A DNA stretch of 64,000 nt from an uncultured Thermoleophilia bacterium (GCA_963831295.1 CAWHPR010000002.1:319964-383963); one strand, 5' to 3'; shown: positions 22,829 through 45,912, counted from the first letter of the stretch. Numbers and translations are program-made. The notes: a model not told the origin generated them from the letters alone.

Positions 22829-23731
22829 TCAGTACACCTCGGGTATGAACGTCTGCGACGCGATGGGTGGGCGCACGTAGCCCTTGTCCGTCGGCCGCGC
22901 GGACAGCGCGAGGTCGTGCGGCAGCACGTCCTCGTAGGGGATCCTGCCCAGCAGGTGGTGGATCATGTTGAGTCGTGCGCGCCGCTTGTCGTCGGCGTTC
23001 ACGACCCACCACGGCGAATCCCTCGTGTCGGTGTAGGCGAACATCTCGTCCTTCGCCTGCGAGTACTCGACCCAGCGATGCCGGCTCTCGAGATCCATCG
23101 GGCTGAGCTTCCACGTCTTCAGGGGGTTCTTCAGCCGCTGCTGGAAGCGCTTCTCCTGCTCCTCGTCGCTGACGCTGAACCAGTACTTCAGCAGGATGAG
23201 TCCGTCGCGGATCAGCATGCGCTCGAACTCCGGGCAGGTCCGGAAGAACTCCCACACCTGGTCCTCGGTCGCGAACCCCATGACACGCTCGACGCCGGCA
23301 CGGTTGTACCAGCTCCGGTCGAAGAGCACGATCTCGCCGGCGGCCGGCAGTTCGGCCACGTACCGCTGGAAGTACCACTCGGTCTTCTCGCGGTCGCTCG
23401 GCGCCGCCAGGGCGGCGATGCGTACCACGCGGGGGTTGAGGTGCTCGGTGATGCGCTTGATCGTGCCACCCTTGCCTGCGGCGTCGCGACCCTCGAAGAC
23501 GACCGCGACGCGACGGCCCTCCTTCTTGACCCACTCCTGCAGCTTCACGAGCTCGATCTGCAGCTTCACGAGCTCACGCTCGTAGGCCTCGCGATCGAGC
23601 TTCCTCCGCGCCGACGCCTTGTCCGTGGTGGGCGGCGTGCCCGCACCGGCCCGTCGAGCGGCCACGATGTCCGCGGCCTCGGCCGGCGGCGGCGCGGTCT
23701 CTCTCTTCTTCTTGTCCTTCTCCTCAGCCAT
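22829..23731 (-). CDS. ppk2: Polyphosphate kinase 2
   Basis: FEGRDAAGKGG, FDRSWYNRAGVERVMG, WKLSPMD, NADDKRRARLN. Start at MAEEKDK. Confidence 0.95.
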   Translation of the reverse strand: MAEEKDKKKRETAPPPAEAADIVAARRAGAGTPPTTDKASARRKLDREAYERELVKLQIELVKLQEWVKKEGRRVAVVFEGRDAAGKGGTIKRITEHLNPRVVRIAALAAPSDREKTEWYFQRYVAELPAAGEIVLFDRSWYNRAGVERVMGFATEDQVWEFFRTCPEFERMLIRDGLILLKYWFSVSDEEQEKRFQQRLKNPLKTWKLSPMDLESRHRWVEYSQAKDEMFAYTDTRDSPWWVVNADDKRRARLNMIHHLLGRIPYEDVLPHDLALSARPTDKGYVRPPIASQTFIPEVY

Positions 23732-23809
23732 CGTCCACCCCCGGTGCCCGATCCTCAGCATCATAGTCGACATCGACACGCGGCGAAGGCCGGCGCCCGT
23801 GGTCGCGCG

Positions 23810-24535
23810 CTACCGGCGCTCGGCCCCGGGGGCTCGGCGGTCATCGTCGCGAGACCGCGACGTGAGCACGGCGAGCAACTCCTCCGGCGTGGCGACGACC
23901 CGCGAGGCGCCGGCCGCGAGCAGGGCCTCCGGCCCGTGCCAGCCCCACCCCACCGCGACCGGTGTGACTCCGGCCTCGCGCGCCTCGCGCATGTCGCCGG
24001 CCGTGTCCCCGACGAAGAAGTAGACCGCCTGCCGCGGGTAGCGTTGCCTCAAGAGCCCGATCTTCTCCGTCTTGCTGTGCCCGCTCTCGACACCGGCGAT
24101 CGCCGTGACGCCCTCGACGTGGTTCTCGGCGAGGAACCGGCGGACAAGAGGTTCGCTGTTGGACGTGACGATCACCACATCGCCCAGCTCGCCGAGCCGC
24201 GCCAGCACCTCCGGCATCCCCACGAACGGCTTCATTCGGGACAGATCGCGCTCGAGTACGCGCCCCGCCGTCTTCAGCGCCCGCGCGACGGCCTGCTCGC
24301 CGGCGCCGATGGCGCGGAAGCTCTCGTACACGTTGCCGGCGAAGAGCGCGACAACGTCGTCGACGGTCCGCACGGGGGCGATCCCATGCTCCGCACACGC
24401 GGCGATCAGGGCGAAGGCGAAGACCTCGAGTGAGTCGACCACGACACCGTCGAAGTCGAACATCACGACCTCGCGATACCGCTCCCCCTTCGCGGCGAGC
24501 GGCGGGCGAGGCGCCGGCGGCGGGAACGATGTCAT
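23810..24535 (-). CDS. HAD-superfamily phosphatase (Gph-like)
   Basis: MFDFDGVVVDS (motif I), VIVTSN, FVGDTAGDM, VGWGWH. Confidence 0.88.
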   Translation of the reverse strand: MTSFPPPAPRPPLAAKGERYREVVMFDFDGVVVDSLEVFAFALIAACAEHGIAPVRTVDDVVALFAGNVYESFRAIGAGEQAVARALKTAGRVLERDLSRMKPFVGMPEVLARLGELGDVVIVTSNSEPLVRRFLAENHVEGVTAIAGVESGHSKTEKIGLLRQRYPRQAVYFFVGDTAGDMREAREAGVTPVAVGWGWHGPEALLAAGASRVVATPEELLAVLTSRSRDDDRRAPGAERR

Positions 24536-24593
24536 CGCCCCCGCCGCCTTCCGCGCGCCCGAGGGGACTTCGAGTCTCCGGCAGATGAACGGC

Positions 24594-26015
24594 TCAGGAG
24601 GCCGACGTCTTGCCCGAGACCAGACCGGTCTTCTTCTTGAACTGCTCGACGCAGTTGATCTCGATGTCGAGCAGTTCGGCGATGCGCACCTTCGCGGCTA
24701 TGCCCTTCGCGATGCCCGGGACGCCCGTGATCGTGCCGATGTCAAGCTCTTCCCTGACACCTCGCATCATGGTCGGATCGGACAGGTCGAGCGCTGTCAC
24801 GTGAAGCTTGTCGGCCACGTACCTCTTGGCGTCGTCGATCCTCATCTTCTTGTTGAGCTGCATCCTCGCCACTAGATCTCCAGCGGCCCGGATGCCACCC
24901 ATCGATGAGGCCAGCAGATGCGCCAGGTGCATGCCGGCAGGGTCACCCGTACCCACCTACAACCCGTCGGCCTTGCCGATCTCGATCATGGCGGCGCTGC
25001 AGCGCGTGACGACGTCGACGGCGGGCGTCTCGAACATCGGCACGCCCCCGACGCCCATGCCGACGTTCGGATGCACCGGGATCTTGGCGATCTGGGTGCA
25101 GGCCTTCACGAAGGTCAGCGCGCGGGCGAGGTTCCACGGGACCGTCTTCCTGGTGTTGGTGTTGCAGACGGGGCCGAAGATCGCACAGCCCGCCTGTTCA
25201 CACAGATCGAGCTGCTGATGTGGCCAGAGGCCGGCGAGCCGGACGCCGTTGTACTCGAGCTCGCCGTGGAAGCCGAGGACCATCTCGGACGACATGCCGA
25301 TCTCGACCGGCAGGCCCGTCTCCTTGGCGACGTGCTCGGTGGTCTTGAGGACGGCCAGGAACTCGGCGTCGCCGGTCGAGGCGACCGTGTCGTAGTCGAT
25401 GCCGTCGGCGCCCATCGCGACCATGCAGTCGCTCATCTCGACGCAGTCCTCGAGGCAAGCCTCGAGGGCCTCCTCCTGCGTGCGGCGCGCCTCGTCGATC
25501 TTGCCCAGGGGCAGCAGGTCCGAGGGGTTCTCGAAGGAGCCGTCGGGCCGGTAGTAGAGGCCGAGGTTCGGCATGAAGCCGTAGAGCAGCGGGAAGATCG
25601 TCACCTCCTGGAGGATCTCCATGTGCAGCATCTCGAGCGCCTTGAGGAAGCGCTGCGGCTTCACCGAGTAGTCGTTGTGCGAGACCTCCATCGAGTCGAA
25701 GCCGAGCATCGACTCGAAGAGGCGCACGCCCACCTCGCGGTTGACCGGCGCGACGACCCCGCTCGACATGCGCGAGGAGTTGAGCGCGTTGACGCAGCCG
25801 TCCTTGGTCATCACGACCTCGTTGCCGCGCTGCACGCCCCAGAGTCGTGTCGGCGCCGAGAACATGTCGACGAGGAAGTCGATCTCGTTCTCGGTCAGCG
25901 TCGGGATCTTGGCCTTGACCGCGGCCGCCTCGGACCCCGTCACGAACTCGCTTCTCAGCTCGTCCGGGGTGAGCTCGACGTTCGAGGCGTCGCCCATCCT
26001 GGTCAGTATCTTCAT
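24594..26015 (-). CDS. mtbB: Dimethylamine:corrinoid methyltransferase with in-frame TAG (predicted pyrrolysine, codon 353), 473 aa by readthrough
   Basis: MKILTRMGD...[13 protein letters not shown]...EIGKADGL-[TAG 24957-24959][13 protein letters not shown]...[14 protein letters not shown]...REELDIG...AKGIAAK. From memory this matches the Methanosarcina MtbB pattern DGI-O-IGVGDP. Confidence 0.92.
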
Positions 26016-26074
26016 ACTCGGTGACCTCCGCAGTGTCACTCGTTGACGACCGTCCGTCTCGGACAGGTCTGAAT

Positions 26075-28129
26075 CTAGCGGTTCAGCGCCGCCCTGGCAC
26101 GCTCGTAGACGTTGTCGGCGGTGAAGCCGAAACGCTCGAAGAGGATGCCGGCCGGGGCCGAGGCGCCGTAGTGATCGAGGCCGATGACGTCGCCCTCGTC
26201 GCCGACCCAGCGCTCCCAGCCGAACGTGACGCCCGCTTCGACGGCCAGTCGCCGGCGGCAGGCGCGCGGCAGAACGCTCTCGTGGTAGACCGCGTCCTGG
26301 CGCCCGAAGAGCTGCCACGAGGCCATGTTGACGACGCGCGAACGCACGCCCTCGGCCGCGAGGCGCTCGTGCGCCTCGAGCACGGGCGCGACCTCGCTGC
26401 CGCTCCCGATGAGGATCAGCTCGGGTACGGCATCGGCGACGGCGTCGGCGAGCACGTAGGCGCCGCGGGCGACACCGTCCGCCGGCCCGTACTTGCCTCG
26501 ATCGATGGTAGGCAGGTTCTGGCGCGTCAACATGAGCCCGACCGGGCCGTCGGCGTGCGTCACGGCGATCTTCCACGCCTCGACGGTCTCGTTGGCGTCG
26601 GCCGGACGCAGCTCGACCCAGTTCGGCGTGGCCCGCAGGATGGCGAGGTGCTCGACCGGCTGGTGGGTGGGCCCGTCCTCGCCGACACCGATGCTGTCGT
26701 GCGTCAGCACGTAGGTGACGGGCAGCCCCATCAGCGCCGCGAGGCGCATCGCCGGCCGCATGTAGTCGACGAAGACGAAGAAGGTGGCCACGTACGGGCG
26801 TATGCCGCCGTGCAGCGCGAGCCCGTTGCCGATCGAGGCCATGGCGTGCTCGCGGACCCCGAAGTGGAAGTTGCGCCCGGCGGGCGTGGCCGCCTGCTGG
26901 GCCGGCGCGTCCTTGATGACGGTGTTGTTCGAGGGCGCGAGGTCGGCCGAGCCGCCCATGAGGGTGGGCAGATGTGGCGCGAGCGCGTTGATCGTCTTGC
27001 CCGACGCCGCCCGCGTCGCCACGGCGCCGTCGGCGGGGTCGAAGACCGGCAGGTCGGCATCCCAGCCGTCTGGGAGCTTGCCGCTCCAGGCGGCGTCCCA
27101 GCTCGCGGAGCGGCCGGCATCGGCCGCGCTCCATGCCGCGTGACGCTCGCGCCACGCGGCGTGCACGGCCGCACCGCGCTCGGCGGCGGCCGCGTAGAAC
27201 GCCTTCACGTCGTCGGGCACGAGGAAGTCGGGCTCGAGCGGCCAGCCCAGGTTCTGCTTGGTCAGCACGACCTCGTCGGGGCCGAGCGGAGCGCCGTGAG
27301 CGCCGGCCGAGTCCTGCTTGTGAGGCGAGCCGAAGCCGATATGCGTGCGCACCGCGACGAACGACGGCTTGCCGGTCTCGGCCTTCGCAGCGGTGATGGC
27401 GGCGTCGATCGCCTCGACGTCGTTGCCGTCGGCGACCTTCTGCACGTGCCAGCCGTACGCCGCGAAGCGCGCGCAGACGTCCTCGGTGAAGGCGAGGTCG
27501 GTGGGACCGTCGATCGTGATGTGGTTGTCGTCGTAGAGGACGACGAGCTTGCCCAGCTTCTGGTGACCGGCGAACGATGCGGCCTCGCCGCTGATGCCCT
27601 CCATCATGTCGCCGTCGCCGGCGAGGACGTAGGTGAAGTGGTCCATCACGCCGGGGCCGTCGCCGTTGAACGCTGCGCCGAGGAAGCGCTCGGCGACGGC
27701 CATGCCGACGGCGTTGGCGAATCCCTGGCCCAGCGGACCGGTCGTGGTCTCGACGCCGGCGGTGTGCCCGTACTCGGGATGACCCGGCGTCTTGCTGCCC
27801 CACTGGCGGAAGGCCTTGAGGTCGTCGATCGAGAGGTCGTAGCCGGTGAGGTGGAGCAGGGAGTAGAGGAGCATGCTGGCATGGCCTGCCGAGAGCACGA
27901 AGCGGTCGCGGTCAGGCCACGCCGGGCCGGAAGGGTCGAAGCGCAGGTGGCGCGTGAACAAGGTGTGCGCCACAGCTGCGGCGCCCATGGGCATGCCGGG
28001 GTGACCGGACTTGGCCTTCTGCACGCCGTCCACCGCGAGAAAGCGGATGGTGTCGATGCAACGATCCTCGAGGGCTTTGGTGCCTGCGTGGCGCTCTTCG
28101 AAGGTCCCGGCGCTCGCGTCTGGGCTCAC
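26075..28129 (-). CDS. tkt: Transketolase
   Basis: [27 protein letters not shown] motif GDGDMMEG...[19 protein letters not shown]. Confidence 0.97.
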
Positions 28130-28230: not shown

Positions 28231-29355
28231 TCACACGGCCGACGCCGGACGCTCGTCGGCGCCGTGAGCCTCGCCGAAGTAGGCGCGCACGAAGCGCACG
28301 AAGCGCCCGCACTCCTCGGGAGTGCCCGGGGTGACGCGGAAGTAGCCCTCCCTGCCGTTGATCGGCTTGATCGTCTTGAGGAAGATCTTCTCCATGTCCA
28401 TGGCCGCCCGGACGATCTCGGCGCTGGTCTTGCCGGTGACGCCGGCGTCGATGAGCATGTAGTTGCCGTGAGCCGGGAAGGGCTTGAGGCCGACGGCCTC
28501 GAGCTCCTTGGCGAAGACGTCCATCCAGTCGTTGTTGTACTCGACCTTCTTCGTGACCTCGCCACTGTCGAGGATCGCCTCGGCGGCGGCGATCGCCATG
28601 AGGTTCAGGTTCCACGGCAGGTACATGAGGTTGAAGGCCTCGACGAGCTCGGGAGAACCGACGACGTACCCGAAGCGGACCCCGGCGAGGCCGAAGGCCT
28701 TCGAGAAGGTGTGCGAGAGGAACACGTGCGGGTACTTCTTGACGAAGTCGACCTTGGCCGCGACCTGCGGGTGGTAGTCGAGGTACGCCTCGTCGATGCA
28801 GAGCGGGATGCCGAGCTCGCAGAACCTGGTGAGATCGGCGTCGTCGATGAAGATCCCGGTCGGGTTGTTGGGGTTGATGATGAGGATGACCTTGGTCTTG
28901 TCGTTGACCGCCGCCAGCATCCCCTCGACGTCGTACTGCAGGTCCTCTTCGCGCAGCGGGATCTGCACGGTCTTGGCGCCGCAGAGACCGGCGCGCGAGG
29001 GGAACATCTCGAACGTCGGGTTGGAGCAGAGGAACTCGTCGCCGGGCTGCAGGAAGATGCGCATCATCGCGTCGATGGTCTCCGACGACCCATTCGCCAG
29101 AGCGATGTTCTCGGCGGCCACGCCGTGCAGCGCGCCGAGCTTGGCGCGCAGCCGGTAGGCACGGTCGGGGTAGCGGTTGCCCCGCTTCGCCATGTCGACG
29201 ATCGCCTCGACGACCTGGTCCGACGGCGGCACAGGGTTCTCGTTGAGCATCATACGACCGCACTCGGGCTGCGCCCACGCCTTGTCGAGGATGGACGTGT
29301 TGTACTCAGGGGCGGTGAGGAGCCACGGCACGAACCTGTCTTTGATGTCGGTCAT
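28231..29355 (-). CDS. Class I/II PLP aminotransferase (HisC-like, substrate uncertain)
   Basis: LNENP, NRYP, NGSSE, NPNNPTG, DEAY, PLP-lysine motif TFSKAFGLAGVRFGY. Start at MTDIKD. Confidence 0.85.
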   Translation of the reverse strand: MTDIKDRFVPWLLTAPEYNTSILDKAWAQPECGRMMLNENPVPPSDQVVEAIVDMAKRGNRYPDRAYRLRAKLGALHGVAAENIALANGSSETIDAMMRIFLQPGDEFLCSNPTFEMFPSRAGLCGAKTVQIPLREEDLQYDVEGMLAAVNDKTKVILIINPNNPTGIFIDDADLTRFCELGIPLCIDEAYLDYHPQVAAKVDFVKKYPHVFLSHTFSKAFGLAGVRFGYVVGSPELVEAFNLMYLPWNLNLMAIAAAEAILDSGEVTKKVEYNNDWMDVFAKELEAVGLKPFPAHGNYMLIDAGVTGKTSAEIVRAAMDMEKIFLKTIKPINGREGYFRVTPGTPEECGRFVRFVRAYFGEAHGADERPASAV

Positions 29356-29380
29356 TCTCGCTGTCCTTTCGTCGCGGCGA

Positions 29381-30580
29381 TCAGGCGTCTGCGAGGCAGC
29401 TGCCCGCGAACGCGACCATCTCGTTGGTGGCCTTGGAGAAGGCATCCGCCGTCTTCACGAGCGCCGGATGGGTGTTGTATTCGTCGCGCGTGTAGCCGTC
29501 CTCTTCGTAGGCGCGCTCGAAGTACGGGATCCGCATGAGCTTGTCCATGACTTCCTTGGGCGGATCGACGGAGATGCGGTCCGCCTGGAAGGTGATGTCG
29601 TCGGCCGTCGGGAAGTTGATGAGCTCGTCGATGAGGCTCGGAGGGCAGGTGACCACGATGTCGGCTCCAGCCTTCTCCTCGAGGTGCCAGATCTTCGTCT
29701 TGCCGTCGACGACTGGCCCGAGGCGCAGGGAGCAGGAGAGCATCTTGCTCTGATAGCCGCCGTCCTTGACGAGACGGTACGCCTTCTTGAAGATGGCCAG
29801 CTCGGCCATGCGGACGTCGCCCTCGGTCACCTCGATGCCCTTCTCCTTGCCGGCCTCACGCAGACCACCGAGGTCGCCGTAGCGGGCCTCCATGTGCGTG
29901 ATCACCGAGCGCCACTTCGAGAGGTCGACGCCATCGGCCTTGGCCTTCTCGAGACCGCGCTTCACGGTCTTCGCGCAGTCCATGAGCTGCGGCAGGATGA
30001 AGGTGAGGGTGTTGTTGGTGGCGATCCCCTTGGCGGTGAGAGCCTCGATGACGTCGTAGCCCTCCTTCGTGCCGGGCACCTTGATCATCACGTTGGGGTT
30101 GATGGTGTGGATCTCGAGCGCCTGCGCGAGCATGGCGTCCTTGTCGAAGCAGCTCCGCGGATCGACCTGGCCGGAGAGGAAGCCTTCCTTGTGGCCGGAT
30201 GCCTCGAACAGGGGGAGGAACAGGTCGGAGCCCTGCTTGACGACCTGCTTGTACATCTGCCAGAAGAGGCCCTCGGTGTCGAGCCCGCCGGCCTCCTTGA
30301 GGATCTTCTCCGCCTCAGCCTTCCAGCGTGGCGGATCGTCCTGGATGGCCTGCAGCGACAGCGGGGGGTTGGTCGTGACGCCGCGGAAGAGCTGGCTCAT
30401 CGGATCGTCGGCGTTGTACATCCGCGCGAACTGGGCCTTGAGGACCTCGCGGTCGCCGGGGTCGGCTTTGGCGAGCATCTTCTTGTACCAGTTGTCGAGG
30501 ATGACCGGCGACGAGTCCCACCAGATCTCCATGCCGGGGCTGACGGCGACCAGGTCCTCCAACATGTTGCGTTCGTGCAT
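29381..30580 (-). CDS. tal: Transaldolase-family protein
   Basis: GVTTNP, SGQVDP, Schiff-base VMIKVPGT, NNTLTF. Confidence 0.85.
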   Translation of the reverse strand: MHERNMLEDLVAVSPGMEIWWDSSPVILDNWYKKMLAKADPGDREVLKAQFARMYNADDPMSQLFRGVTTNPPLSLQAIQDDPPRWKAEAEKILKEAGGLDTEGLFWQMYKQVVKQGSDLFLPLFEASGHKEGFLSGQVDPRSCFDKDAMLAQALEIHTINPNVMIKVPGTKEGYDVIEALTAKGIATNNTLTFILPQLMDCAKTVKRGLEKAKADGVDLSKWRSVITHMEARYGDLGGLREAGKEKGIEVTEGDVRMAELAIFKKAYRLVKDGGYQSKMLSCSLRLGPVVDGKTKIWHLEEKAGADIVVTCPPSLIDELINFPTADDITFQADRISVDPPKEVMDKLMRIPYFERAYEEDGYTRDEYNTHPALVKTADAFSKATNEMVAFAGSCLADA

Positions 30581-31518: not shown

Positions 31519-31561
31519 CACAAAGTCGCACATATTGTAACTGAGCCCTGGGGGGTGTCAA
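31519..31561 (-). promoter_or_regulatory. Housekeeping-sigma promoter with putative DeoR operator
   Basis: On the minus strand: TTGACA (31561-31556), 16 bp, TACAAT (31539-31534), then ATGTGCGACTTTGTG. Confidence 0.7.
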
Positions 31562-31728
31562 GCGTGACGGCGAACAGAACCGCACAGTCGCGCGGCAAGT
31601 GGCCGGTGGCGCACCAAAGACTTCACACTGACCGCGGAGCCGGCCCAGGAAGGCGTCGTCGCAGGGCGTGGATCAGAACGCCGGGCCGTGCTCGCGGCGC
31701 GTCCGGGCGCCGTCGCCCCGCGGCCGGC

Positions 31729-34469: not shown

Positions 34470-34542
34470 AAGTTGACCCTCCTGTCGAATAGTGACTGCC
34501 GGCGCCATGGCGCCGCCCCCCGGGTGTCGCGCGTCGGCGCGT

Positions 34543-37436: not shown

Positions 37437-38438
37437 TTATCCCGATGTCATCTGGTATCCGGCCACCTTGCCCGGCGCAAGCGTGAAGATGCACCCGCGG
37501 AGGATGCCTTCACCGTACTCGCTGCCGGGGTTGATCACGGTCGTGCGTCCGACTTTGACGAGGCCGCGAGACTCATGGATGTGTCCGGTGAGGAGCACAA
37601 GAGGCTGGTACTTCTCGACGATCTTGCGGACCGCCGTGCTGCCCGCGGGTGCGCTCTGCGGCACGCCGGCGATGACGACCGGCGTCGGCGGGTCCGTGGA
37701 CCAGTCCAGCTTGGGACAGTCGTCGAGCGTACAGTCGTACGGTGGAACGTGCATGTTGAAGATGGCGTTGGAGAAGTCGTCGATGCCCTCCACGGCCTTC
37801 TCGAGCAGGCCCCCCAGACTCTCTTCGTCGGTCTCCCTCGGCGTGACCCACGGCGTCGGGTTGCTGAACCCGCAGTTGGCCATGGGATACACGTCTTCAA
37901 GAACGACGACCCTCTCCTCGCAATTCACGACGTGCTCGCTGTTCGAGGCGTCGAGCAGGTCGAGCAGGTCCTGCGGGTCGTCGTTGCCGCCCGTCACGTA
38001 GCACTTCACCCCCGTTCCGTCCAGGCGCTCGTCGGCGAGCGCGATCCATCGCTCCAGGCGGGCATGGGCCTCGCGCCGGAACGCTTCGTCGATGTGGCTC
38101 TGGTCGCTCTGCATCTCGCGCAGGTCGTCTTCGCTCACGGTCACATGATAGAAGCCAAGCGTCTCGATGCGCTCCCTGAAGTCGTTGACGGCAGCCTCGC
38201 CGTCCAGGTGGTTGACCTCCTCCTGGAGGGTGACGCGGTAGTGCCCGCCGCCCTCGTCCACGATCGGGATGAGGTACTTGCCCATGATGTCGCCGCCCAT
38301 GATCAGGTGGTCGACCTTGTAGAACGCGGCGCCGTTGATGAACTTGCGGTAGGTGCGCTCGGAGCCGTGGATGTCGGTCGCGTAGAACAAGCGCACCCGC
38401 TCGCCGCCGTCGCCTTCCTTCTTCTTCCAGAATGCCAT
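37437..38438 (-). CDS. Icc-related calcineurin-like metallophosphoesterase (copy 2)
   Basis: YATDIHGS, GGDIMGK, GGNDD, HVPP, LTGHIHES, INPGSEY. Confidence 0.85.
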   Translation of the reverse strand: MAFWKKKEGDGGERVRLFYATDIHGSERTYRKFINGAAFYKVDHLIMGGDIMGKYLIPIVDEGGGHYRVTLQEEVNHLDGEAAVNDFRERIETLGFYHVTVSEDDLREMQSDQSHIDEAFRREAHARLERWIALADERLDGTGVKCYVTGGNDDPQDLLDLLDASNSEHVVNCEERVVVLEDVYPMANCGFSNPTPWVTPRETDEESLGGLLEKAVEGIDDFSNAIFNMHVPPYDCTLDDCPKLDWSTDPPTPVVIAGVPQSAPAGSTAVRKIVEKYQPLVLLTGHIHESRGLVKVGRTTVINPGSEYGEGILRGCIFTLAPGKVAGYQMTSG

Positions 38439-38465
38439 GGACCTGCCGCCTCTCCCGTCTACCGT

Positions 38466-39275
38466 TCAGTCGATCTCGTTGTACCAGCGCTTCTTGTCGC
38501 CGATCTTCGCGCGCAGCTTCCACTTGGTGCCCTTGGGATAGTCGTCCATCGCGCTCAGCACCACGGCGATACGTTGTGACACGACCTTCTTGTCGTTGTC
38601 GTCGAGATCCAGATGCGGAAGGTACGCCCGCACCTTGTCGAGGTTCATGGTGGTGGTGCGCCACAGACCCCACTCCCGAGCGCAGAGCTTGGCGATGCGC
38701 GCCGAGTTGATGTGATCGTCGTCGGCGGCGATCTCGTGCTCGCGCAGCAGCATGATCGTGTCGATGATGTCCTTCTCGTTGATCTTCACGATCTGCATCT
38801 TCTCGAGCAGCAGCTCCGCCAGCGGGATGGTGGGCGAGTCGACCTCGAGCCTTCCCTTCCACGGGATCTCGTGGCAGAAGTAGAGACGGTCCATGAACAC
38901 GTCGACATGGATGTGCTTGCCGGGGTGGTTGAAGATGAGCCGGCCGCCCTCGGCGTGGAAGGCGTTGATCTCGAGGTCCTCGTCATAGCCGAGCGACACG
39001 AAGAGCTCGCGGATCTGCCGGTCCTGCTTGCCGTACCCCGCGAAGTCGATGTCGGTGTAGACGCGGTTGAGCTTGGCCTGGATGAAGCCGAATTCGGGGC
39101 AGTGGTGATGGAAGGCCAGCGCTCCGATGATGCGCAGTGGGACACCCGCGGCGTCGCCGGCTTCGACCACACGCAGCGCCTCGTCTTCGAAGACCTTGGC
39201 CAGGTCGGCGTCGGGGGTACCGACGCCGACTTCGTCACCGACCTGGCCGGCCGGCTGGGTGACTTCATCGTTCAT
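38466..39275 (-). CDS. Uncharacterised Pol-beta-like nucleotidyltransferase-fold protein (copy 2)
   Basis: RIIGALAF, YTDIDF, VDVF. RBS GGGAGG before ATG 39275. Confidence 0.7.
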   Translation of the reverse strand: MNDEVTQPAGQVGDEVGVGTPDADLAKVFEDEALRVVEAGDAAGVPLRIIGALAFHHHCPEFGFIQAKLNRVYTDIDFAGYGKQDRQIRELFVSLGYDEDLEINAFHAEGGRLIFNHPGKHIHVDVFMDRLYFCHEIPWKGRLEVDSPTIPLAELLLEKMQIVKINEKDIIDTIMLLREHEIAADDDHINSARIAKLCAREWGLWRTTTMNLDKVRAYLPHLDLDDNDKKVVSQRIAVVLSAMDDYPKGTKWKLRAKIGDKKRWYNEID

Positions 39276-39351
39276 GTACACCTCCCGGTCCGCGTGACGG
39301 CCGTCCCGGCACGGCCGTCACACCCTCCCGGGCGCCCCCGCGGGCGCCCGC

Positions 39352-40263
39352 CTACACCGTCGCGAGCCACGTAGGGTACTCCGGGTCGCCGGCGTTGCCC
39401 CGCAGCCGGTCGAGACGAGCGTTGCCGTACTCGCGGTAGTCGAAGTCGAGCTTGGACACCTGCTCCTGGATGAACGCCCAGATGCTCCACCACAGGTCGG
39501 CGACGATCTTGTGCAGGAGCATCCGGTGGAACCGGTGCTCCTGCATCTCGCCGCAGTACCGGGTGGCGATGAGGCGCTCCTCGTCGCGCGAGAGCGGGTG
39601 CTCCACACAGAAGTCGCCGAGGTCGAAGTACGGGTCGTTCATCCCGCCGTACTCCCAGTCGATGAGCCACATCCGGCCGGCGTCGTCGAGGATGAAGTTC
39701 TCGGACAGCAGGTCGTTGTGACAGGCGACAGGGCGCGGCATGTCGCGCTCCATCGCCTGTTCGATCTCGGCGCCGATGGCCATGATCCGCGGCCAGTCAG
39801 ACGGGAACCAGGCGTTCGCCTCGCCGGCCATCCGCAGGTAGTCGCGAATCATCGGGAACACGCTCGTGTCGTTGGTGAAGGCGGCCGTGTCGTGGTACGT
39901 CCTGATGACGTCCACCACCTTCTCGAGCCGCTCGGGATGACCGGCCAGGGTGTCGGGATGCATCGTCTCGCCGCGGATGAAGGGCACGACCGTGCACTTC
40001 TCGGGCTCGAGCACGTGCAGCAGCGGCGGCGCCACGCCCGCGGCCGCGGTCGACCGGTGATTGCCGAGCTCCCGCTCGCGGTCGATGAACGCGTCCGTGC
40101 CGGCGCCGGGGATGCGCAGCACGTACTTCCCGCCCCGCCCCCCGTCGACGGTGATCATGTAGTTGTGGTTGGTGATGCCCCCGCCGATCTCCTCGCACTC
40201 GACGTGCTTGCCGCGCCAGTCGTCGATGCGGCCGATGGCGGCCTCGGGTGTCAGCCGCGTCAC
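39352..40263 (-). CDS. Choline/ethanolamine kinase-like phosphotransferase
   Basis: GGGITNHNY, YVLRIPG, Brenner motif CHNDLLSEN, LIDWEYGG, YFDLG. Start overlaps the mtmB-like stop (GTGA). Confidence 0.88.
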   Translation of the reverse strand: MTRLTPEAAIGRIDDWRGKHVECEEIGGGITNHNYMITVDGGRGGKYVLRIPGAGTDAFIDRERELGNHRSTAAAGVAPPLLHVLEPEKCTVVPFIRGETMHPDTLAGHPERLEKVVDVIRTYHDTAAFTNDTSVFPMIRDYLRMAGEANAWFPSDWPRIMAIGAEIEQAMERDMPRPVACHNDLLSENFILDDAGRMWLIDWEYGGMNDPYFDLGDFCVEHPLSRDEERLIATRYCGEMQEHRFHRMLLHKIVADLWWSIWAFIQEQVSKLDFDYREYGNARLDRLRGNAGDPEYPTWLATV

Positions 40264-41642
40264 GAGGCCGGCACCTCGAGGCCCATGCCGGCCAGCTCGC
40301 TGCGGACCTCCGCGATCGTGCGCAGGTACTCCTCGTTCACGATCCGCTTCGTCTTCATGTCGTACACCTGCTGGAACGTGAGGCCCTTGTCCGGGTCCTT
40401 CAGCTTGTCGCCGAACAGCGGGAACAGTCTCTGGGCCAGAGGCTCCGCCTCGGCGCGGGTGAGCTTCGCGGTCGCGAGACCGATCTCCGCGTGGAACTTG
40501 TGGTCGTCGGGCACGAGCGAGTCGGGCTGCACGGCCATGGACGGGTGACCGGAGAAGACATTGCCCCCGGAGGTCACGACGGCCAGCATGTAGCAGGCCA
40601 TCTCGTAGTGGTACTGCTTCGTGCCCGAGCCGCCGCCCAGGTACGGCAGGTTCACCATGGGGTAGCCCATGTTGCGACCGATCGCGGCGTTGGACATCGC
40701 GATCGCCCAGATGAGGGGCTTCGTCGAGCTCAGGTGCAGTTTGCTGTGCAACGGCGCGTTGTAGTGGTAGCTGCCGCGGAAGATGAGGTTGCCCATGATC
40801 ATGTAGGCGGTCGCCTGCACGGCGATGCCCTCCGCCCCGCCGGCGTAGCCGCCGAAGAGGGGCGTGGACGTGGAGCCGATGTTGGCGCTGAGGCTGTTGT
40901 AGAAGGCCACCTTCTGCAGCGCCTCGTAGCCGACCACCATCTCGGAGAGAAAGTCGATCAGGAAGCCGTCGCTCGGACGCAGGCCGAAGTCGGGATGACT
41001 GGCGGCGAACATCGAGGCCGGCTGCGAGGCGGCTGAGATGCCGTTGATGATCGGCAGGCCGGCACGCCCCGAACGACGGATGCCCTCGCGCGCCAGCCGC
41101 ACCGTCTTGCAGGCAGCAAGGACCTCCTGCGGCGAGCGCACGCGCGCGTCCTTGCCGCGCAGATGCAGGATGGACGGCACGCTCACGGAGTCGACGATGC
41201 TGTACGAGGCCATCATCTCGACGGTGTCGAGGTAGACCTGCTCATCGGTCGTGTAGATGCCGCCGCCGACGTGCACCCACGGACGGTCGTCCGTGGTGTC
41301 GGGGCGGCGGCCGTACATCGCCTTGCGCTCGCGGCCCTCGCCGAAGACCGCGCTGGTCGGACACTGACCGCAGGCAGTGAGGACCTCGTCGTGGGTGAAC
41401 TCCATCACACGGTTGGTCTCGGGACAGTAGGCCCCAGCCTCGGCGATCAGGTCGACGGCGGCCCGGAAGACGCGGTCAGTGAGGTCGTCGTCAGTATTGA
41501 TGATGGTCTGCTTGTCCCACTTGACGCCGTGGCGCGCCAGCAGCTCGCTGAGCTTCGGCACGTAGCGCTTCATGTAGTAGTCGGTCTCGGAGATGAGCGG
41601 GCCGGACTCGGCGCGCTCGAACACCTCTGTCAAGTCGATCAT
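40260..41642 (-). CDS. mtmB: MtmB-family (monomethylamine) corrinoid methyltransferase, pyrrolysine-free
   Basis: ERAESGP, YCPETNRVMEF, RSGRAGLP, STPLFGGYAGGAEG, GSGT. No in-frame TAG. Confidence 0.82.
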   Translation of the reverse strand: MIDLTEVFERAESGPLISETDYYMKRYVPKLSELLARHGVKWDKQTIINTDDDLTDRVFRAAVDLIAEAGAYCPETNRVMEFTHDEVLTACGQCPTSAVFGEGRERKAMYGRRPDTTDDRPWVHVGGGIYTTDEQVYLDTVEMMASYSIVDSVSVPSILHLRGKDARVRSPQEVLAACKTVRLAREGIRRSGRAGLPIINGISAASQPASMFAASHPDFGLRPSDGFLIDFLSEMVVGYEALQKVAFYNSLSANIGSTSTPLFGGYAGGAEGIAVQATAYMIMGNLIFRGSYHYNAPLHSKLHLSSTKPLIWAIAMSNAAIGRNMGYPMVNLPYLGGGSGTKQYHYEMACYMLAVVTSGGNVFSGHPSMAVQPDSLVPDDHKFHAEIGLATAKLTRAEAEPLAQRLFPLFGDKLKDPDKGLTFQQVYDMKTKRIVNEEYLRTIAEVRSELAGMGLEVPAS

Positions 41643-41677
41643 GTCGTGCTCCCTGAAAGTCGGGGTCGCCTGGACGG

Positions 41678-42325
41678 TCAAGACACCAGCTGTGCGGACA
41701 CGCTCACGGCCTCGTACGCCGAGCCGGCCCAGCCGTCGGCGCCGATGGAGTCGGCCCACTCCTTCGTCGTGGCGCCTCCGCCGACGAGCACCTTGTACTT
41801 GTCGCGCGTGCCCTGGTCGCGCAGCGCTTCGATCACGTCCCGCTGTCCGACCAGCGTCGTCGTGAGGAGCGCGGACATCGCGATGATGTCGGCGTCGACC
41901 TCCTTGGCCTTGTCGACGAACTGGAAGAGGTCGACATCGATGCCGAGGTCCCAGACCTCGAACCCCGAGGTCTCGTAGAGGAGCCTGAGGATGTTCTTCC
42001 CGATCGAGTGAAGGTCGCCCTTGACGGTGCCGAGGACGACCTTGCCCTTCTTCGGGCCCGCGCCGCCGCTCTCCTTGATCTTCGGCTCGAGCACGCTCAT
42101 GGCGGCCTGGAAGGCGAGCGCCGCCTGCATCAGCTCGGGCAGGAAGATCTCCTCGCTCTCGAACTGCTCGCCGATGACATTGAGGCCCGGCAGGAGCCCC
42201 TCGTCGATGATCGCTTTGGCGTCGACGCCTGCGGCGAGGGCCTCGTCGACGGCGCCGAGCACGCCGCCTTCGTCCTGGTCGATCACCGCCTGCTTGAGCT
42301 GCCCGAAGATCTCTGCGTCCGTCAT
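41678..42325 (-). CDS. Methyltransferase cognate corrinoid protein (MtbC/MtmC-type B12-binding)
   Basis: IFLPELM, LGTVKGDLHSIGK (DxHxxG), SALLTTT, VGGG. Confidence 0.95.
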   Translation of the reverse strand: MTDAEIFGQLKQAVIDQDEGGVLGAVDEALAAGVDAKAIIDEGLLPGLNVIGEQFESEEIFLPELMQAALAFQAAMSVLEPKIKESGGAGPKKGKVVLGTVKGDLHSIGKNILRLLYETSGFEVWDLGIDVDLFQFVDKAKEVDADIIAMSALLTTTLVGQRDVIEALRDQGTRDKYKVLVGGGATTKEWADSIGADGWAGSAYEAVSVSAQLVS

Positions 42326-42403
42326 TGGATGCTCCCTTGATCCGTGTGATCCCGCTTCACGACCGCACCCGGTCGTGTCTTTCACCGCCGACCCTGTCCG
42401 CCG

Positions 42404-43858
42404 CTACGCTTCGGCGACCTCCAGGGGCGCAGCGTCGCCGGCGACGAGCCCGGGGAACCGGTCGCGGATGCGCCGGTCGAGCTCAACGTCCCAGACTGCC
42501 GGGTTCGACTGCGAGAGGAGACGCCGCGCCTCAGTGAGGGCGCGCTCGTGGATGTCGGGGCGCCCGGCGTCCTCCCATTGGGCGCGCATATCGCGGGCGG
42601 CCAGCCTCGGCAACACGGCCGTCGTCTTCATGCGCGCCCTCGTGTGCCCGCGGCTCATGTAGCCGCCGCCCGGCCCGACCGCGACGATCTCGTCGATCGC
42701 CAGGTTCTCCTCGCTGAACTCGAGCCCGCGCCACGCGCGCTTGTCCATCAGCGCGATCTCGTTGTCGATCACGCACTTCGCGAAGTCGAACGCCATGAGC
42801 GAGCTCAGGAGCCCGCCCATGTTGAGAAGGGTCGCCCCCGCCGACACGGCCAGCAGCGTGTTCATGCCGGTCTCGAAGCCCGACTGCGCGTCGTTCGCGT
42901 GGGCGTTCGTGAGGCCGACGTAGCCGCCCGACGGCACGCCGTAGAAGCGGGCCAGCTGCGCCTGGGCCGCGATGAGGATGCCCGTCTCGACGGCTCCTGG
43001 CGCGTAGGCCCCCGTCCGCATGTCGGCGACGGTCGGCAGACTCGCGTAGATCACGGGCGTGCCCTCGCGGACCATCTGCTGGAAGGCGGTGATCGCGAGA
43101 TACTCGGCGTTGCCGACGACCAGGCAGCCCATCAGCGTCATGGGCGCGGTGAGGCCCGCGTTCGGCACGACCGTGGTGTAGACCGGCAGCCCCTGCCCGG
43201 TGAGCCACATGACGGCCTCCGTCGATTCGACGTCCATCGTCAACGGGCTCACCATCGGACAGTAGTGGTGAGTGATCAACGGCCGCTCCCGGTAGGCGTC
43301 CGGGCCACCGGCGATGAGCTCACCCAGCTCGACGACCTGGCGCAGGTCGTCCATGCTCGGCGTGTTGCTGCGCACGGGCTTCAAACAGTTCTTGAGCGCC
43401 GGGTAGAACCGGCTCAGGCTGAGTTGTCCTTCCGGCGCGTCGTCGGCGAGCGTCGAGATACTGAAGACGTCGAAACCGGGGAGCTCGTTGATCATGTAGG
43501 CGATGGCGGCGATGTCGCCGGAGGTGGCGCGCCGCTCGACCCCCGTCACGGGATCGACGACGTTGGGTGCCGAGGAGCCGGTCACCACGACGGGGCCGTC
43601 GTCGGGGATCGTGCGATCGAAGCGCGGGTCGCGCCCGCGGAAGGTGAAGCTCGCCGGCGCCATCGCGCGATAACGTTCGACCACGTCGGCCGGCAGCCGC
43701 ACGAGCCCGGTCTCCCGCTCGACACGGCAGCCGTGCCTGGCGAAGATCTCGCGCGCCTCAGTGCTGTGCACGAGGATGCCGGCCCTTTCGAGGACCTCGA
43801 GCGACGCCTCGTGCGTCCGGCCCACCTGGGCCTTGGTGAGCAGCTCCGCGAATCTCAT
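42404..43858 (-). CDS. mttB: MttB-family quaternary-amine/methylamine corrinoid methyltransferase, pyrrolysine-free
   Basis: HEASLEVLERAGI, CPMVSPL, AGLTAPMTLMG, GLTNAH, GGLLSSLMAFDFAK, GPGGGY. No in-frame TAG. Confidence 0.9.
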   Translation of the reverse strand: MRFAELLTKAQVGRTHEASLEVLERAGILVHSTEAREIFARHGCRVERETGLVRLPADVVERYRAMAPASFTFRGRDPRFDRTIPDDGPVVVTGSSAPNVVDPVTGVERRATSGDIAAIAYMINELPGFDVFSISTLADDAPEGQLSLSRFYPALKNCLKPVRSNTPSMDDLRQVVELGELIAGGPDAYRERPLITHHYCPMVSPLTMDVESTEAVMWLTGQGLPVYTTVVPNAGLTAPMTLMGCLVVGNAEYLAITAFQQMVREGTPVIYASLPTVADMRTGAYAPGAVETGILIAAQAQLARFYGVPSGGYVGLTNAHANDAQSGFETGMNTLLAVSAGATLLNMGGLLSSLMAFDFAKCVIDNEIALMDKRAWRGLEFSEENLAIDEIVAVGPGGGYMSRGHTRARMKTTAVLPRLAARDMRAQWEDAGRPDIHERALTEARRLLSQSNPAVWDVELDRRIRDRFPGLVAGDAAPLEVAEA

Positions 43859-43862
43859 TGCG

Positions 43863-45071
43863 TCACGCTCCCTCTCCCCCGCGACCTCGAGCGGCGCGGG
43901 TGACGGCTGTGGCGATGGCGGCAAGCTCGGCGAAGTGGTCCTCGATGAACTCCACGAAGGCCACGTTGTGCTCGAGGAAGAAGAGAAACTCGTCGTCGTT
44001 CGGCGTGCGTTCCTTGTAGTAGGCGACGATGTCCCAGTTCACGACGTAGAGGGCCGCGATGGCGACCATGCGCGGCAGCGCCGCCAGTTCGTCCTCGCCC
44101 ATCGGCCCGGGATCGGCGAAGCGCGTCGTCTCGTCCTGGTAGGCGTCGAGGAAGAGCTCGACCTTGTCGAGGCGCATCTCGCCGTCGTCGCGGCCCTCCC
44201 ACGAGCTGCAGAAGTACACGAGGCCGATGGCAACGTCGAAGAGACGGTAGTCGAGCTTGGCCCAGTCGAAGTCGAAGAGGCCCACGGCCTTCTCGTCGCG
44301 CCACTTGAGGTTGCCGGGATGGTAGTCGCAGAAGACCGGGCAGCGAGGCAGCCCCTCGAGCGCGGGAACGAGGGCCAGACCGCGCTCGATCGCCTCCAGG
44401 ATGCCGGGCAGCTTGGCAAGGAAGCACGCGTCGTACCTGGTACCGGTCGTCTGCGCCGCCAGCCCGCGGAAGGTGTCGGGCAGCGTCGCCAGGAAGTCCA
44501 TGATGGGCGGCTGCTCGCGCACGAGGTCGCCGGGGTCGAAGTCGTGCGCCGCCTGGTGGAACCGGGCGAGGACGCGGGCGCCGTCCGCGAAGGCGGCGTC
44601 GCTGCAGCGGTTCTTGACCCAGCTGTACGTGTCCTCGCCGTCGAGCATCTCGTACACGGCGAAGTAGCGGATGACCCGCTCCCCGTCGCGCAGCTCCTCG
44701 CGGGTCACGACGGTGTCGCCGTGCCGGGTGCCGAGGACTTGCGCCGCGAGATCGAAGCCCTTGCCCCTGATGTGGCGCACGAGCGCGTGCTCGTAGCGGA
44801 TCTCGCGCTCGACGGTCCCGTACTTGTACTTGCGCGCGAAGTAGCGCCGCTCGCCGGCGTCTCCGCGCGCACAGACCGCGAAGCTCAGGTTCTCGGTCCC
44901 GCCGAGGATCTGTTCGACGCGGTCGACCTCGCCGAGGTCGTAGTCGCTCGTCACCACCTCGGTGAGCTGGGCGCTGAGGAACTCGACCCGCAGCGCCTCA
45001 TGGAGGGTGGCGACGTCGGTCGCCAATCGCTGGGCCGTGTCGAAGAGCCGGTTGGCCTGCTCTAGGTCCAC
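43863..45071 (-). CDS. APH/type II homoserine kinase-like phosphotransferase
   Basis: LGGTENLSF, LARFH, CDYHPGNL, GLFDFDW, LFDVA. The start could also be ATG 45092. Confidence 0.82.
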   Translation of the reverse strand: MDLEQANRLFDTAQRLATDVATLHEALRVEFLSAQLTEVVTSDYDLGEVDRVEQILGGTENLSFAVCARGDAGERRYFARKYKYGTVEREIRYEHALVRHIRGKGFDLAAQVLGTRHGDTVVTREELRDGERVIRYFAVYEMLDGEDTYSWVKNRCSDAAFADGARVLARFHQAAHDFDPGDLVREQPPIMDFLATLPDTFRGLAAQTTGTRYDACFLAKLPGILEAIERGLALVPALEGLPRCPVFCDYHPGNLKWRDEKAVGLFDFDWAKLDYRLFDVAIGLVYFCSSWEGRDDGEMRLDKVELFLDAYQDETTRFADPGPMGEDELAALPRMVAIAALYVVNWDIVAYYKERTPNDDEFLFFLEHNVAFVEFIEDHFAELAAIATAVTRAARGRGGEGA

Positions 45072-45117
45072 GTCGCTCTCTCTCCCTCGCACCCCCGCAG
45101 CACCGCGCTTCGTTCGT

Positions 45118-45912
45118 TCATACCACGATGCAACGGACGCCGAGTGACGTCAGCTCGTCGCGGACGGCCTCGTCGACACCGTCGTCGACCATCACGGCGT
45201 CGACCTGGTCGAACCCGCAGATGACGACGTCGGCGACCACGCCTACTTTGCTGCGGTCGGCGAGCACGACGACCTCGCCGCGTGTCTGGGCCATCATCGC
45301 CCGCTCGATGCTCGCCATGCCGAGAGTCGGAGTCGTCATCCCCTCCTGGAGATCGAAGCCGTCGACCCCGAGGAGCATACGGCTGGCGTGGAAGCGACTG
45401 ATCTGCTCGAGCCCGAGGGGGCCGTCGACCGCGTTCGACCGCGCCCGGTAACGCCCGCCTACGAGGATGAGCTCGAGGCGTCCGCCTTGAGCCTCGGCGA
45501 GCGCCCCGACGTTGTGGGTGACGACGCGAGCCTCGATCGCTGGGTCGACGTGACGCAGGACCTGCGCGGCCGTGGTGCCAGAGCTCAAGAACACGGTCTC
45601 GCCAGGCTGGATGAGCGCGGCTGCGGCCCGCGCGATGCGGCGCTTCTGCTCGGTGTTCGCCGACACGTTGTCGAGGTAGAGCGGCTCTTCGACCATGTGC
45701 CGCCTGAGGACCGCGCCCCCGTGCGTGCGCACGAGCACACCCTCGGCCTCGAGACGCTCGAGGTCGCGGCGGATCGTCATCTCGGAGACGCGAAGGTCAT
45801 CGCTCAACGAGGACACGCGCACCGCGCGTCTCCCCTGGAGCAGCTCGGAGATGCGGGCGCGACGTTCCGCCGGGATCATCTCGTGGGCTTCAGGCACTGC
45901 TGGCGACGACAT
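45118..45912 (-). CDS. DeoR/GlpR-family transcriptional regulator (copy 2)
   Basis: Same motifs as 30637-31452, with an identical 44-residue stretch covering the HTH. Confidence 0.95.
   Translation of the reverse strand: MSSPAVPEAHEMIPAERRARISELLQGRRAVRVSSLSDDLRVSEMTIRRDLERLEAEGVLVRTHGGAVLRRHMVEEPLYLDNVSANTEQKRRIARAAAALIQPGETVFLSSGTTAAQVLRHVDPAIEARVVTHNVGALAEAQGGRLELILVGGRYRARSNAVDGPLGLEQISRFHASRMLLGVDGFDLQEGMTTPTLGMASIERAMMAQTRGEVVVLADRSKVGVVADVVICGFDQVDAVMVDDGVDEAVRDELTSLGVRCIVV

Follow-up and report, generated by a model that had tools for sequence, protein, structure and literature searches.

The window analysed here, a stretch of 64,000 nucleotides from the genome of an uncultured Thermoleophilia bacterium (GCA_963831295.1 CAWHPR010000002.1:319964-383963), contains an island of 19 genes in which three methyltransferase families (MttB, MtmB-like and MtbB) are encoded together with two small-molecule kinases and with transaldolase-, aminotransferase- and transketolase-like proteins. 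All 19 genes are on the minus strand and span positions 45912 down to 22829. This is very probably a corrinoid-dependent methylated-amine island, and its substrate is probably of the choline type or phosphorylated. The reading preferred here, though only tentatively, is that of a two-operon catabolic island for choline-type N-methylated 2-aminoethanol compounds, with the C2 skeleton passed into sugar phosphates. The gene content, its conservation across genomes, the paralogy of the tal/aminotransferase/tkt genes, the use of pyrrolysine in mtbB and the shared promoters are shown by sequence; the substrates named below are all assigned by inference.

The methyltransferase and kinase core and its conservation

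The G+C content of the window is 70%, and gene calling based on third-codon-position G+C (GC3) was used to tell real genes from the many spurious open reading frames (ORFs), together with Pfam and NCBIfam scans. In order of transcription, the island begins with a DeoR-family regulator (DeoR-A), an APH-family kinase, an MttB without pyrrolysine (non-Pyl), a corrinoid protein, a non-Pyl MtmB-like methyltransferase and a LicA-type choline/ethanolamine kinase. These are followed by a nucleotidyltransferase-fold (NTase-fold) protein, a metallophosphoesterase, an APC-superfamily permease, a second metallophosphoesterase, a second APC permease and a second NTase-fold protein. The last part comprises DeoR-B, a divergent transaldolase (Tal'), a HisC-family aminotransferase (AT), a transketolase paralog (Tkt'), MtbB, a HAD hydrolase and a class I polyphosphate kinase 2 (PPK2). 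The initial annotation of this DNA, made from the sequence alone, had described 19 co-oriented genes and named families for 12 of them. The gene count and those families were borne out, and the seven genes added here encode PPK2 and pairs of metallophosphoesterases, APC permeases and NTase-fold proteins. The two tight couplings that it pointed out are also real: the GTG of the LicA-type kinase gene (40263-40261) overlaps the TGA of the mtmB-like gene (40262-40260), and 4 nt separate the stop codon of the APH kinase gene (43865-43863) from the start codon of mttB, an ATG at 43858. The cluster of 19 genes encodes only one corrinoid protein for its three methyltransferases.

The non-Pyl MttB matched the structure of MtgB (9yce, E 2e-64), with Thr at the Pyl column. 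The corrinoid protein is MtgC/MtbC-like; its best NCBIfam match was MtgC, with 222 bits, below the cut-off of 310, and its orthologs are 215 amino acids (aa) long. The MtmB-like protein aligned end to end with Methanosarcina barkeri MtmB1 (1l2q, E 1e-42, over residues 3-455). It belongs to a well-populated 460-aa family with an invariant Asn200 at the Pyl position and without a Pyl codon.

The APH kinase gene is directly ahead of the non-Pyl mttB. Its product gave a weak match to homoserine kinase type II in NCBIfam and no sequence match in the PDB, and its orthologs are 402 aa long. A homolog search with this kinase yielded close Thermoleophilia relatives only, at 60% identity or above, and did not reach the choline kinase MthK of Eubacterium limosum. 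The LicA-type kinase matched the structures 3dxq (E 3.5e-43) and Streptococcus pneumoniae LicA (4r77, E 8.8e-24). The match to a verified choline kinase places it in the choline/ethanolamine kinase family, and its substrate is predicted accordingly from the sequence.

Species-representative genomes were scanned, and the 80 loci that this gave, 57 of them from Thermoleophilia, were scored with the window's 19 proteins. The order DeoR, APH kinase, MttB, corrinoid protein, MtmB-like, choline kinase recurred among these 57. Where the upstream flank was long enough (44 Thermoleophilia loci), MttB and the corrinoid protein were present in 44/44, DeoR in 43/44 and the APH kinase in 38/44. In 29 of 46 loci a choline-kinase-like gene was immediately 3' of mtmB-like, and 36 had one anywhere in the locus. 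Among the 35 Thermoleophilia loci having a 10-kb downstream flank, 27 contained a metallophosphoesterase; MtbB was within 10 kb in 26/35.

MtmB-like, corrinoid and choline-kinase-like genes were also found together in Desulfohalobiaceae/Desulfobacteraceae and in Spirochaetota, three phyla in all. The initial annotation had named co-location not conserved in other genomes as a refutation of its reading; instead, both the core and the tal/tkt link are kept across relatives. The Spirochaetota loci combine an APH kinase with two MtmB-like/corrinoid pairs and two choline-kinase-like genes, and lack MttB. Other Desulfobacterota loci encode an ATP-binding cassette (ABC) transporter followed by MttB of the same clade (57-66% identity), one or more corrinoid proteins and MtmB-like, without a kinase. 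The three parts of this transporter best match the PhnS2/PhnU2/PhnT2 2-aminoethylphosphonate family, at scores below the cut-offs. These contexts as a whole suggest substrates that share an N-methylated 2-aminoethyl phosphate (or phosphonate) skeleton, either imported or made by the kinases. Contig L072, from Syntrophobacterales, encodes an AT 65% identical to that of the window beside MttB, corrinoid protein and MtmB-like, plus a sarcosine-oxidase/GcvT-type demethylase and a 2-aminoethylphosphonate-type ABC transporter. The Desulfohalobiaceae MtmB-like loci L066 and L071 include a RACo-type corrinoid activator, an S-adenosylmethionine (SAM)-dependent methyltransferase, a SAM synthetase and a formate-dehydrogenase-like gene.

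The nearest records of the organism are metagenome-assembled genomes (MAGs) of uncultured Thermoleophilia, which come from lake sediment and digesters as well as from soils and peat. Its genome has three copies of MtbB, six corrinoid proteins and no fewer than 20 paralogs of the MttB family, of which two carry a stop at the Pyl position, indicating that it is a methylated-amine specialist. The two MttB paralogs with an in-frame stop at the Pyl column (C3:535706-537082 and C4:226467-227804) are on that account regarded as true trimethylamine-type enzymes. The copy on C4 has as its neighbours a corrinoid protein and another MtbB with a UAG, in what looks like a canonical methylamine cluster.

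The Tal'/aminotransferase/Tkt' unit and the pyrrolysine MtbB

Tal', AT and Tkt' are dedicated, specialised paralogs, as judged by sequence comparison. Tal' retains the Schiff-base Lys (IKVPGT), and falls outside the classical transaldolases: it has Gln (SGQVDP) at the position of TalB Glu96, as in fructose-6-phosphate aldolase, and ITHMEAR in place of TalB SPFVGR, the His and Glu of which are specific to Thermoleophilia. The Gln-type subfamily of about 400 aa may represent an unrecognised type of transaldolase or aldolase. A homolog search with Tal' yielded relatives of at least 78% identity only and no distant contexts; in the alignment of Tal'-like proteins the L111 ORF was spurious and was disregarded. 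AT retains the pyridoxal phosphate (PLP) Lys motif of HisC and both C-terminal basic positions, and its gene is always directly downstream of that of Tal'. A housekeeping role for AT as hisC was ruled out, since its score is below the TIGR01141 cut-off and the true hisC, at 324 bits, is elsewhere in the genome. The possibility that tal and tkt are the sole pentose-phosphate genes was ruled out as well: relatives that have a Tal' ortholog (75-94% identical) also have a second Tal (28-35% identical), and one of them (L097) has a canonical tkt-tal pair, 63% and 32% identical to the window's tkt and tal, respectively.

The Tal'-AT-Tkt' unit was intact in all ten relatives examined. Among 89 genomes, which represent one order and a single family, 55 encoded both Tal' and MtmB-like, 3 Tal' only, 7 MtmB-like only and 24 neither (Fisher p = 1.7e-12, a value that ignores phylogeny and is drawn from incomplete MAGs). 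The two genes were on one contig in 32 genomes, and in 29 of these they were within 44 kb of each other (2.3 to 44 kb), with 13 within 18 kb. These data exclude a tal/tkt linkage peculiar to this genome, and it is fairly likely that Tal', AT and Tkt' are functionally coupled to the methyltransferase island.

The placement of the unit varies. It comes right behind the choline kinase in L013 and behind an extra permease in L025; in L046 it is upstream and inverted, in G004 and G006 it follows MtbB, and in the window it follows DeoR-B. The mtbB gene is inside the Tal' unit in the window and next to it in G001-G004 and G006. In the closest relative (L110, G001/G491 contig 8, 1-20000; L007), whose MtmB-like protein is 99% identical, the segment from DeoR-B to PPK2 is inverted and about 13 kb away. 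What is left at the original site there is a partial MtbB and pieces of another Tal', one of them with a TAG, and the APH kinase, MttB and choline kinase genes look degraded, owing to rearrangement or to long-read indel errors.

The mtbB gene has a single in-frame TAG, and read through this codon its product scored 511 bits against the TIGR02368 equivalog cut-off of 369. The TAG was at the same column in 38/38 orthologs (82-99% identity), and a PYLIS_2 element begins at the UAG. PylSc is encoded in the genome. PylD was not found in the genome itself, which is 57% complete, and scored above cut-off in 9/12 congeners. ARAGORN did not find a tRNA-Pyl, and Rfam found none near pylS. The conserved TAG, PYLIS, PylS and the PylD of congeners together indicate from sequence that pyrrolysine in mtbB is real. 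The pylSc gene (C4:118058-118783; L003 10056-10916) overlaps the end of an amidase gene and has neither pylT nor pylBCD beside it. A corrinoid protein and a radical-SAM gene are nearby, and the segment L003 2130-6004 looks gene-free and may hide UAG-containing genes.

Transcription units and accessory genes

The island had been described initially as one cluster; it does occupy a single strand, and probably consists of two transcription units. Sigma-70-like sites on the minus strand of the region occurred only upstream of the two DeoR genes, whose upstream regions align. The operator-like motifs GTGCG(A/G)TTCTGT and CGACTTTGTG had just two copies each in the 64-kb window, one at either DeoR promoter, with an identical 57-nt spacing. 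The aligned promoters, the common motifs and the similarity of the regulators (81-83% identity) suggest two co-regulated units, one from DeoR-A to the second NTase-fold gene and the other from DeoR-B to PPK2.

Protein a of the NTase-fold pair had no Pfam, NCBIfam or PDB sequence match. The AlphaFold model matched MenT1, ANT(2'')-Ia, JHP933, LnuA and FKRP in Foldseek, and these matches, with the GxLA / TDID / DVFxD motifs, assign to this pair without a family a small-molecule nucleotidyltransferase fold, as modelled. The HAD hydrolase had no PhnX match in the NCBIfam scan.

Just upstream of DeoR-A is a PcsB/transglycosylase-like gene (46137-47159, minus strand) that is kept in many Thermoleophilia loci and probably has an unrelated cell-wall function. 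At 49283-49378 (plus strand) ARAGORN calls a 96-nt tRNA-Lys(ttt); Rfam at gathering thresholds gave no tRNA in the window, so either the call is false, probably, or the gene is atypical.

Table 1. Features of the island in order of transcription (positions counted from the first letter of the window)
Feature	Positions	Strand	Basis or remark
Promoter-like site TTGACA-17-GATGAT (45988-45960) with operator-like motifs GTGCGATTCTGT and CGACTTTGTG	45954..46011	-	upstream of DeoR-A
DeoR-A (HTH_DeoR and DeoRC sensor domain)	45118..45912	-	DeoRC 132 bits; AgaR/GlpR-like, below cut-offs
APH-family small-molecule kinase (402 aa), candidate MthK-like choline kinase	43863..45071	-	APH 89.7 bits
Non-Pyl MttB-superfamily methyltransferase (484 aa)	42404..43858	-	MTTB 275 bits, without in-frame stop
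Corrinoid protein (B12-binding and B12-binding_2), sole one in cluster; likely start near 42325	41678..42385	-	Pfam
Non-Pyl MtmB-family methyltransferase (460 aa), MtqB-like	40260..41642	-	MtmB 223 bits
LicA-type choline/ethanolamine kinase (303 aa), start overlaps mtmB-like stop	39352..40263	-	Choline_kinase 104 bits, cut-off 29
Pol-beta nucleotidyltransferase-fold protein a	38466..39281	-	GxLA / TDID / DVFxD motifs; AlphaFold model pLDDT 82
Metallophosphoesterase a	37437..38438	-	weak Metallophos matches; 40% identical to paralog b
APC-superfamily permease a	35733..37373	-	AA_permease_2 51.6 bits
Metallophosphoesterase b	34543..35490	-	Metallophos_3
APC-superfamily permease b	32730..34508	-	Pfam scan
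Pol-beta nucleotidyltransferase-fold protein b	31729..32544	-	36% identical to paralog a
Second promoter-like site TTGACA-16-TACAAT (31561-31534) with both operator-like motifs	31528..31585	-	upstream of DeoR-B
DeoR-B regulator	30637..31452	-	Pfam scan; 81-83% identical to DeoR-A
Divergent transaldolase-family Tal' (399 aa)	29381..30580	-	TAL_FSA 115 bits; NCBIfam 103 bits, cut-off 367
HisC-family class I/II aminotransferase AT (start uncertain; orthologs 360-368 aa)	28231..29445	-	250 bits, hisC cut-off 276.55
Transketolase paralog Tkt'	26075..28129	-	TIGR00232 876 bits, cut-off 682; all three domains
Pyl-type MtbB (dimethylamine methyltransferase family)	24594..26015	-	UAG at 24957-24959
PYLIS_2 RNA element, begins at UAG	24860..24959	-	RF02509, 67.4 bits, gathering score 36, E 4e-14
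HAD-IA hydrolase, phosphoglycolate-phosphatase-like (weak)	23810..24535	-	Pfam/NCBIfam
Class I polyphosphate kinase 2 (PPK2)	22829..23779	-	TIGR03707 380 bits, cut-off 302

Candidate pathway, rival explanations and known systems

In the preferred reading, the APC permeases would import choline and/or its partly methylated relatives, and the APH kinase and the LicA-type kinase, coupled to mttB and mtmB-like respectively, would make phosphate esters after the MthK/MthB paradigm. The non-Pyl MttB, the non-Pyl MtmB-like protein and possibly the Pyl-containing MtbB would hand successive N-methyl groups to the single corrinoid protein, from which they would go on to folate via an enzyme encoded outside the cluster. 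The ethanolamine ammonia-lyase EutB was absent from all 89 genomes, and an ethanolamine-type product therefore needs another fate. The primary amine, most simply phosphoethanolamine, could be transaminated by AT, the resulting (phospho)glycolaldehyde condensed by Tal' to a pentulose phosphate, and this moved into the pentose-phosphate pool by Tkt'. The HAD hydrolase, metallophosphoesterases, NTase-fold proteins and PPK2 would have accessory phosphate-handling functions. The specific chemistry from phosphoethanolamine through phosphoglycolaldehyde to xylulose 5-phosphate is doubtful. Equally so is the fullest form of the scheme, in which three unrelated methyltransferases sharing one corrinoid protein strip kinase-activated choline of all three N-methyl groups, with MtbB acting on an N-methylethanolamine derivative, AT forms 2-phosphoglycolaldehyde, and the Gln-type Tal' joins this to a dihydroxyacetone unit to give xylulose 5-phosphate. 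A route from choline through ethanolamine to glycolaldehyde had been put forward in the initial annotation; such a route, through ethanolamine(-phosphate) to (phospho)glycolaldehyde, is by comparative genomics the best-fitting candidate chemistry. The amino sugar offered there as another substrate was dropped, as no gene supports it.

Several observations weigh against the preferred reading. MttB has Gly at the position of MtgB R312 and Asn at that of H348, as do its Desulfobacterota orthologs. R312 is reported to be conserved in MthB, MtcB, MtpB and MtyB, the characterised acid-binding quaternary-amine enzymes (PMC13080624), and because this Arg is replaced, simple orthology of MttB with MthB is improbable, and its mode of binding a phosphate may differ. 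No gene for a methylcorrinoid:folate methyltransferase is present in the cluster, and the genome's only Pterin_bind matches are on contigs C4 and C1. HisC-type enzymes usually take an amine on the secondary carbon beside CH2-O-P, whereas the amine of phosphoethanolamine is on a primary carbon. Of the genome's three MtbB copies, that of the window is the most canonical dimethylamine-type one (508 bits, compared with 386 and about 150), and by sequence it may simply use dimethylamine. A tal gene was within 10 kb in only 4/35 loci, and in 3 of the 32 same-contig genomes the trio was 140-170 kb from MtmB-like. The Tal'/Tkt' link is confined to one family, so inherited synteny contributes to it. 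Finally, members of the Tal'-like subfamily of about 400 aa, with the same Gln, occur in clusters of low-GC Actinomycetota with class II fructose-bisphosphate aldolase (FBA), split transketolase, RpiB and FGGY genes (L112-L118, family f21).

A mosaic of independent modules held together by inheritance, in a general methylated-amine island, is an explanation that is possible rather than likely. MttB, MtmB-like and MtbB would then share one corrinoid protein while acting on separate free substrates (a quaternary amine, a choline- or tetramethylammonium-like compound and dimethylamine, respectively), and the permease-Tal'-AT-Tkt' unit would be separate, serving another amine or a sugar. The canonical character of MtbB, the at least 20 MttB paralogs of the genome, Pyl-type ones included, the single-family linkage data and the ordinary sugar clusters in which Tal'-like proteins of other Actinomycetota are encoded are all in its favour. 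So is the presence in several genomes of a remote trio, 17-170 kb from the core, that has its own APC permease, plus DeoR or an amidase. However, the presence and absence of Tal' and MtmB-like are tightly coupled (55/3/7/24), their nearness survives several rearrangements, and each unit of the window has its own copy of the DeoR regulator with the promoter. Further ties between the modules are mtbB, which lies within the Tal' unit in the window and adjoins it in the five genomes named above, and the linkage of a HisC-like AT to MttB-MtmB-like in a second phylum.

The genes that flank the same core in a sister subclade (L011/L019/L021/L026) keep a serine/hydroxypyruvate reading alive. There, mtmB-like is followed by genes for an AspAT-like aminotransferase, a fusion of GcvT and serine hydroxymethyltransferase (GcvT::SHMT, about 950 aa) and an 814-aa transketolase-like protein, while an ACT-family APC permease, a glycerate 2-kinase and a glyoxylate/hydroxypyruvate reductase are encoded upstream and divergently. 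Methyl groups would in this case become methylene-folate, SHMT would form serine from glycine, AT would convert serine (or phosphoserine) to (phospho)hydroxypyruvate, transketolase would carry out an irreversible ketol transfer from it that yields ketose phosphates, and Tal' would rebalance the pool. Hydroxypyruvate is a known transketolase donor, and the HisC family includes amino-acid transaminases (4r2n). This route is nonetheless improbable for the window, which lacks SHMT and GcvT; in the sister subclade GcvT::SHMT does not stand in for Tal'-AT-Tkt', of which a separate unit is retained there, and the kinases and the aminoethylphosphonate-type transporter of Desulfobacterota are left unexplained. 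That transporter, which is not of the OpuA/ProU type, likewise argues against glycine betaine or another carboxylate betaine as the substrate, demethylated to glycine by MtgB-like chemistry and the subsequent loss of methyl groups from dimethylglycine and sarcosine. The matches of the corrinoid protein to MtgC and of MttB to MtgB, its nearest solved structure, are consistent with a betaine, as are Desulfobacterota loci with a dimethylglycine/sarcosine-dehydrogenase-like gene and electron-transfer flavoprotein (ETF). The carboxylate-binding R312 and H348 of MtgB are missing in MttB, however, and two kinases, one of them LicA-like, are translationally coupled to the methyltransferases, which makes a betaine quite improbable. 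In a further reading, N-methylated 2-aminoethylphosphonates (AEPs), such as trimethyl-AEP, would be the substrates, AT would transaminate AEP and the HAD hydrolase would have a phosphonatase-like role: PhnS2/U2/T2-like genes adjoin the orthologous MttB-MtmB-like genes, and HAD hydrolases occur in both contexts. Yet the transporter scores far below the family cut-offs, the HAD hydrolase is without a PhnX match and the kinases would be superfluous, so phosphonates are highly improbable.

Lipid head groups abundantly include choline and its partly methylated relatives, and what becomes of these compounds under anaerobic conditions decides whether trimethylamine and methane precursors are formed or the compounds are consumed without either. 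If the choline-type reading is true, a widespread actinobacterial lineage of soil and peat demethylates choline fully with no release of trimethylamine, the non-Pyl MtmB clade gains a physiological context and its kinase, and a pyrrolysine enzyme is at work in Actinomycetota. It would also provide a new, carbon-conserving natural route from a C2 amine to pentose phosphates.

The system is real, conserved and partly precedented, and is probably a variant of kinase-assisted corrinoid-dependent choline demethylation. The initial statement that no pathway of this composition had been described is only partly true, because the kinase-MttB-corrinoid and non-Pyl MtmB elements have precedents in MthK/MthB/MthC/MthA (PMC12155760) and MtqB (PMC13044021), respectively; the full route is undescribed. 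E. limosum demethylates choline only after phosphorylation by MthK (WP_052237066.1), and its non-Pyl MttB-type enzyme MthB (WP_341455952.1) uses phosphocholine with MthC and MthA; only one methyl group is taken, and dimethylaminoethanol is excreted (Jiang et al. 2025, PMC12155760). Both systems have a gene for an APH/protein-kinase-like small-molecule kinase adjoining those of a non-Pyl MttB and a corrinoid protein, and phosphorylation, which precedes N-demethylation in E. limosum, would do so here as well. The likeness to MthK/MthB is one of gene context and description, and MttB here lacks the Arg corresponding to MtgB R312. The E. limosum cluster has MthA, a pterin-binding methylcorrinoid:tetrahydrofolate (THF) methyltransferase of a type absent from the window, and an EamA transporter, and is without MtmB-like, MtbB, a second kinase, an aminotransferase, tal or tkt. 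Neither Actinobacteria nor Spirochaetes had entries in the supplements of PMC12155760.

MtqB, a non-Pyl MtmB homolog from Methanococcoides methylutens Q3c, demethylates tetramethylammonium and choline (Kashyap et al. 2026), the only substrates shown for non-Pyl MtmB enzymes (PMC13044021). As compared by description, MtqB/MtqC and the pair in the window each consist of an MtmB homolog without Pyl together with an adjoining cognate corrinoid protein. The MtqB system is archaeal and methanogenic and acts on free choline without a kinase, whereas here the gene overlaps that of a LicA-type kinase, a pairing found in three bacterial phyla. The MtbB of the window resembles the MtbB/MtbC dimethylamine methyltransferase systems of methanogens and some anaerobic bacteria in its TIGR02368 equivalog match, its UAG at the Pyl position, its PYLIS_2 element and the PylS and PylD of its lineage. 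It differs from them in its occurrence in a Thermoleophilia (Actinomycetota) genome of 70% G+C, in having no dedicated MtbC, and in the position of its gene between those of Tkt' and the HAD hydrolase in a DeoR-headed unit.

No paper was found in the literature on three methyltransferase families with one corrinoid protein, on a second kinase coupled to MtmB-like, on a Pyl enzyme in Thermoleophilia or on a dedicated Tal'/AT/Tkt' unit. The conversion of 2-phosphoglycolaldehyde to xylulose phosphate is so far known in synthetic design only (PMC6432428). Full demethylation with assimilation of the skeleton by Tal', AT and Tkt' is undescribed, and judging from the genes would plausibly be a new carbon-assimilation branch. 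AT shares with HisC its fold, family and PLP Lys motif, and also the basic residues near the C-terminus to which the phosphate of a 2-amino-alkyl phosphate binds; it differs from HisC in score and in the fixed position of its gene between tal' and tkt'. The sulfo-TAL and sulfo-TK pathways for sulfoquinovose offer another parallel, in that DeoR-regulated clusters with dedicated Tal and Tkt paralogs move part of the carbon skeleton of an unusual substrate into the pentose-phosphate pool. The island described here, in contrast, has no sulfosugar genes, its Tal' belongs to a different subfamily of about 400 aa with Gln in place of the catalytic Glu, and AT is always encoded between tal and tkt.

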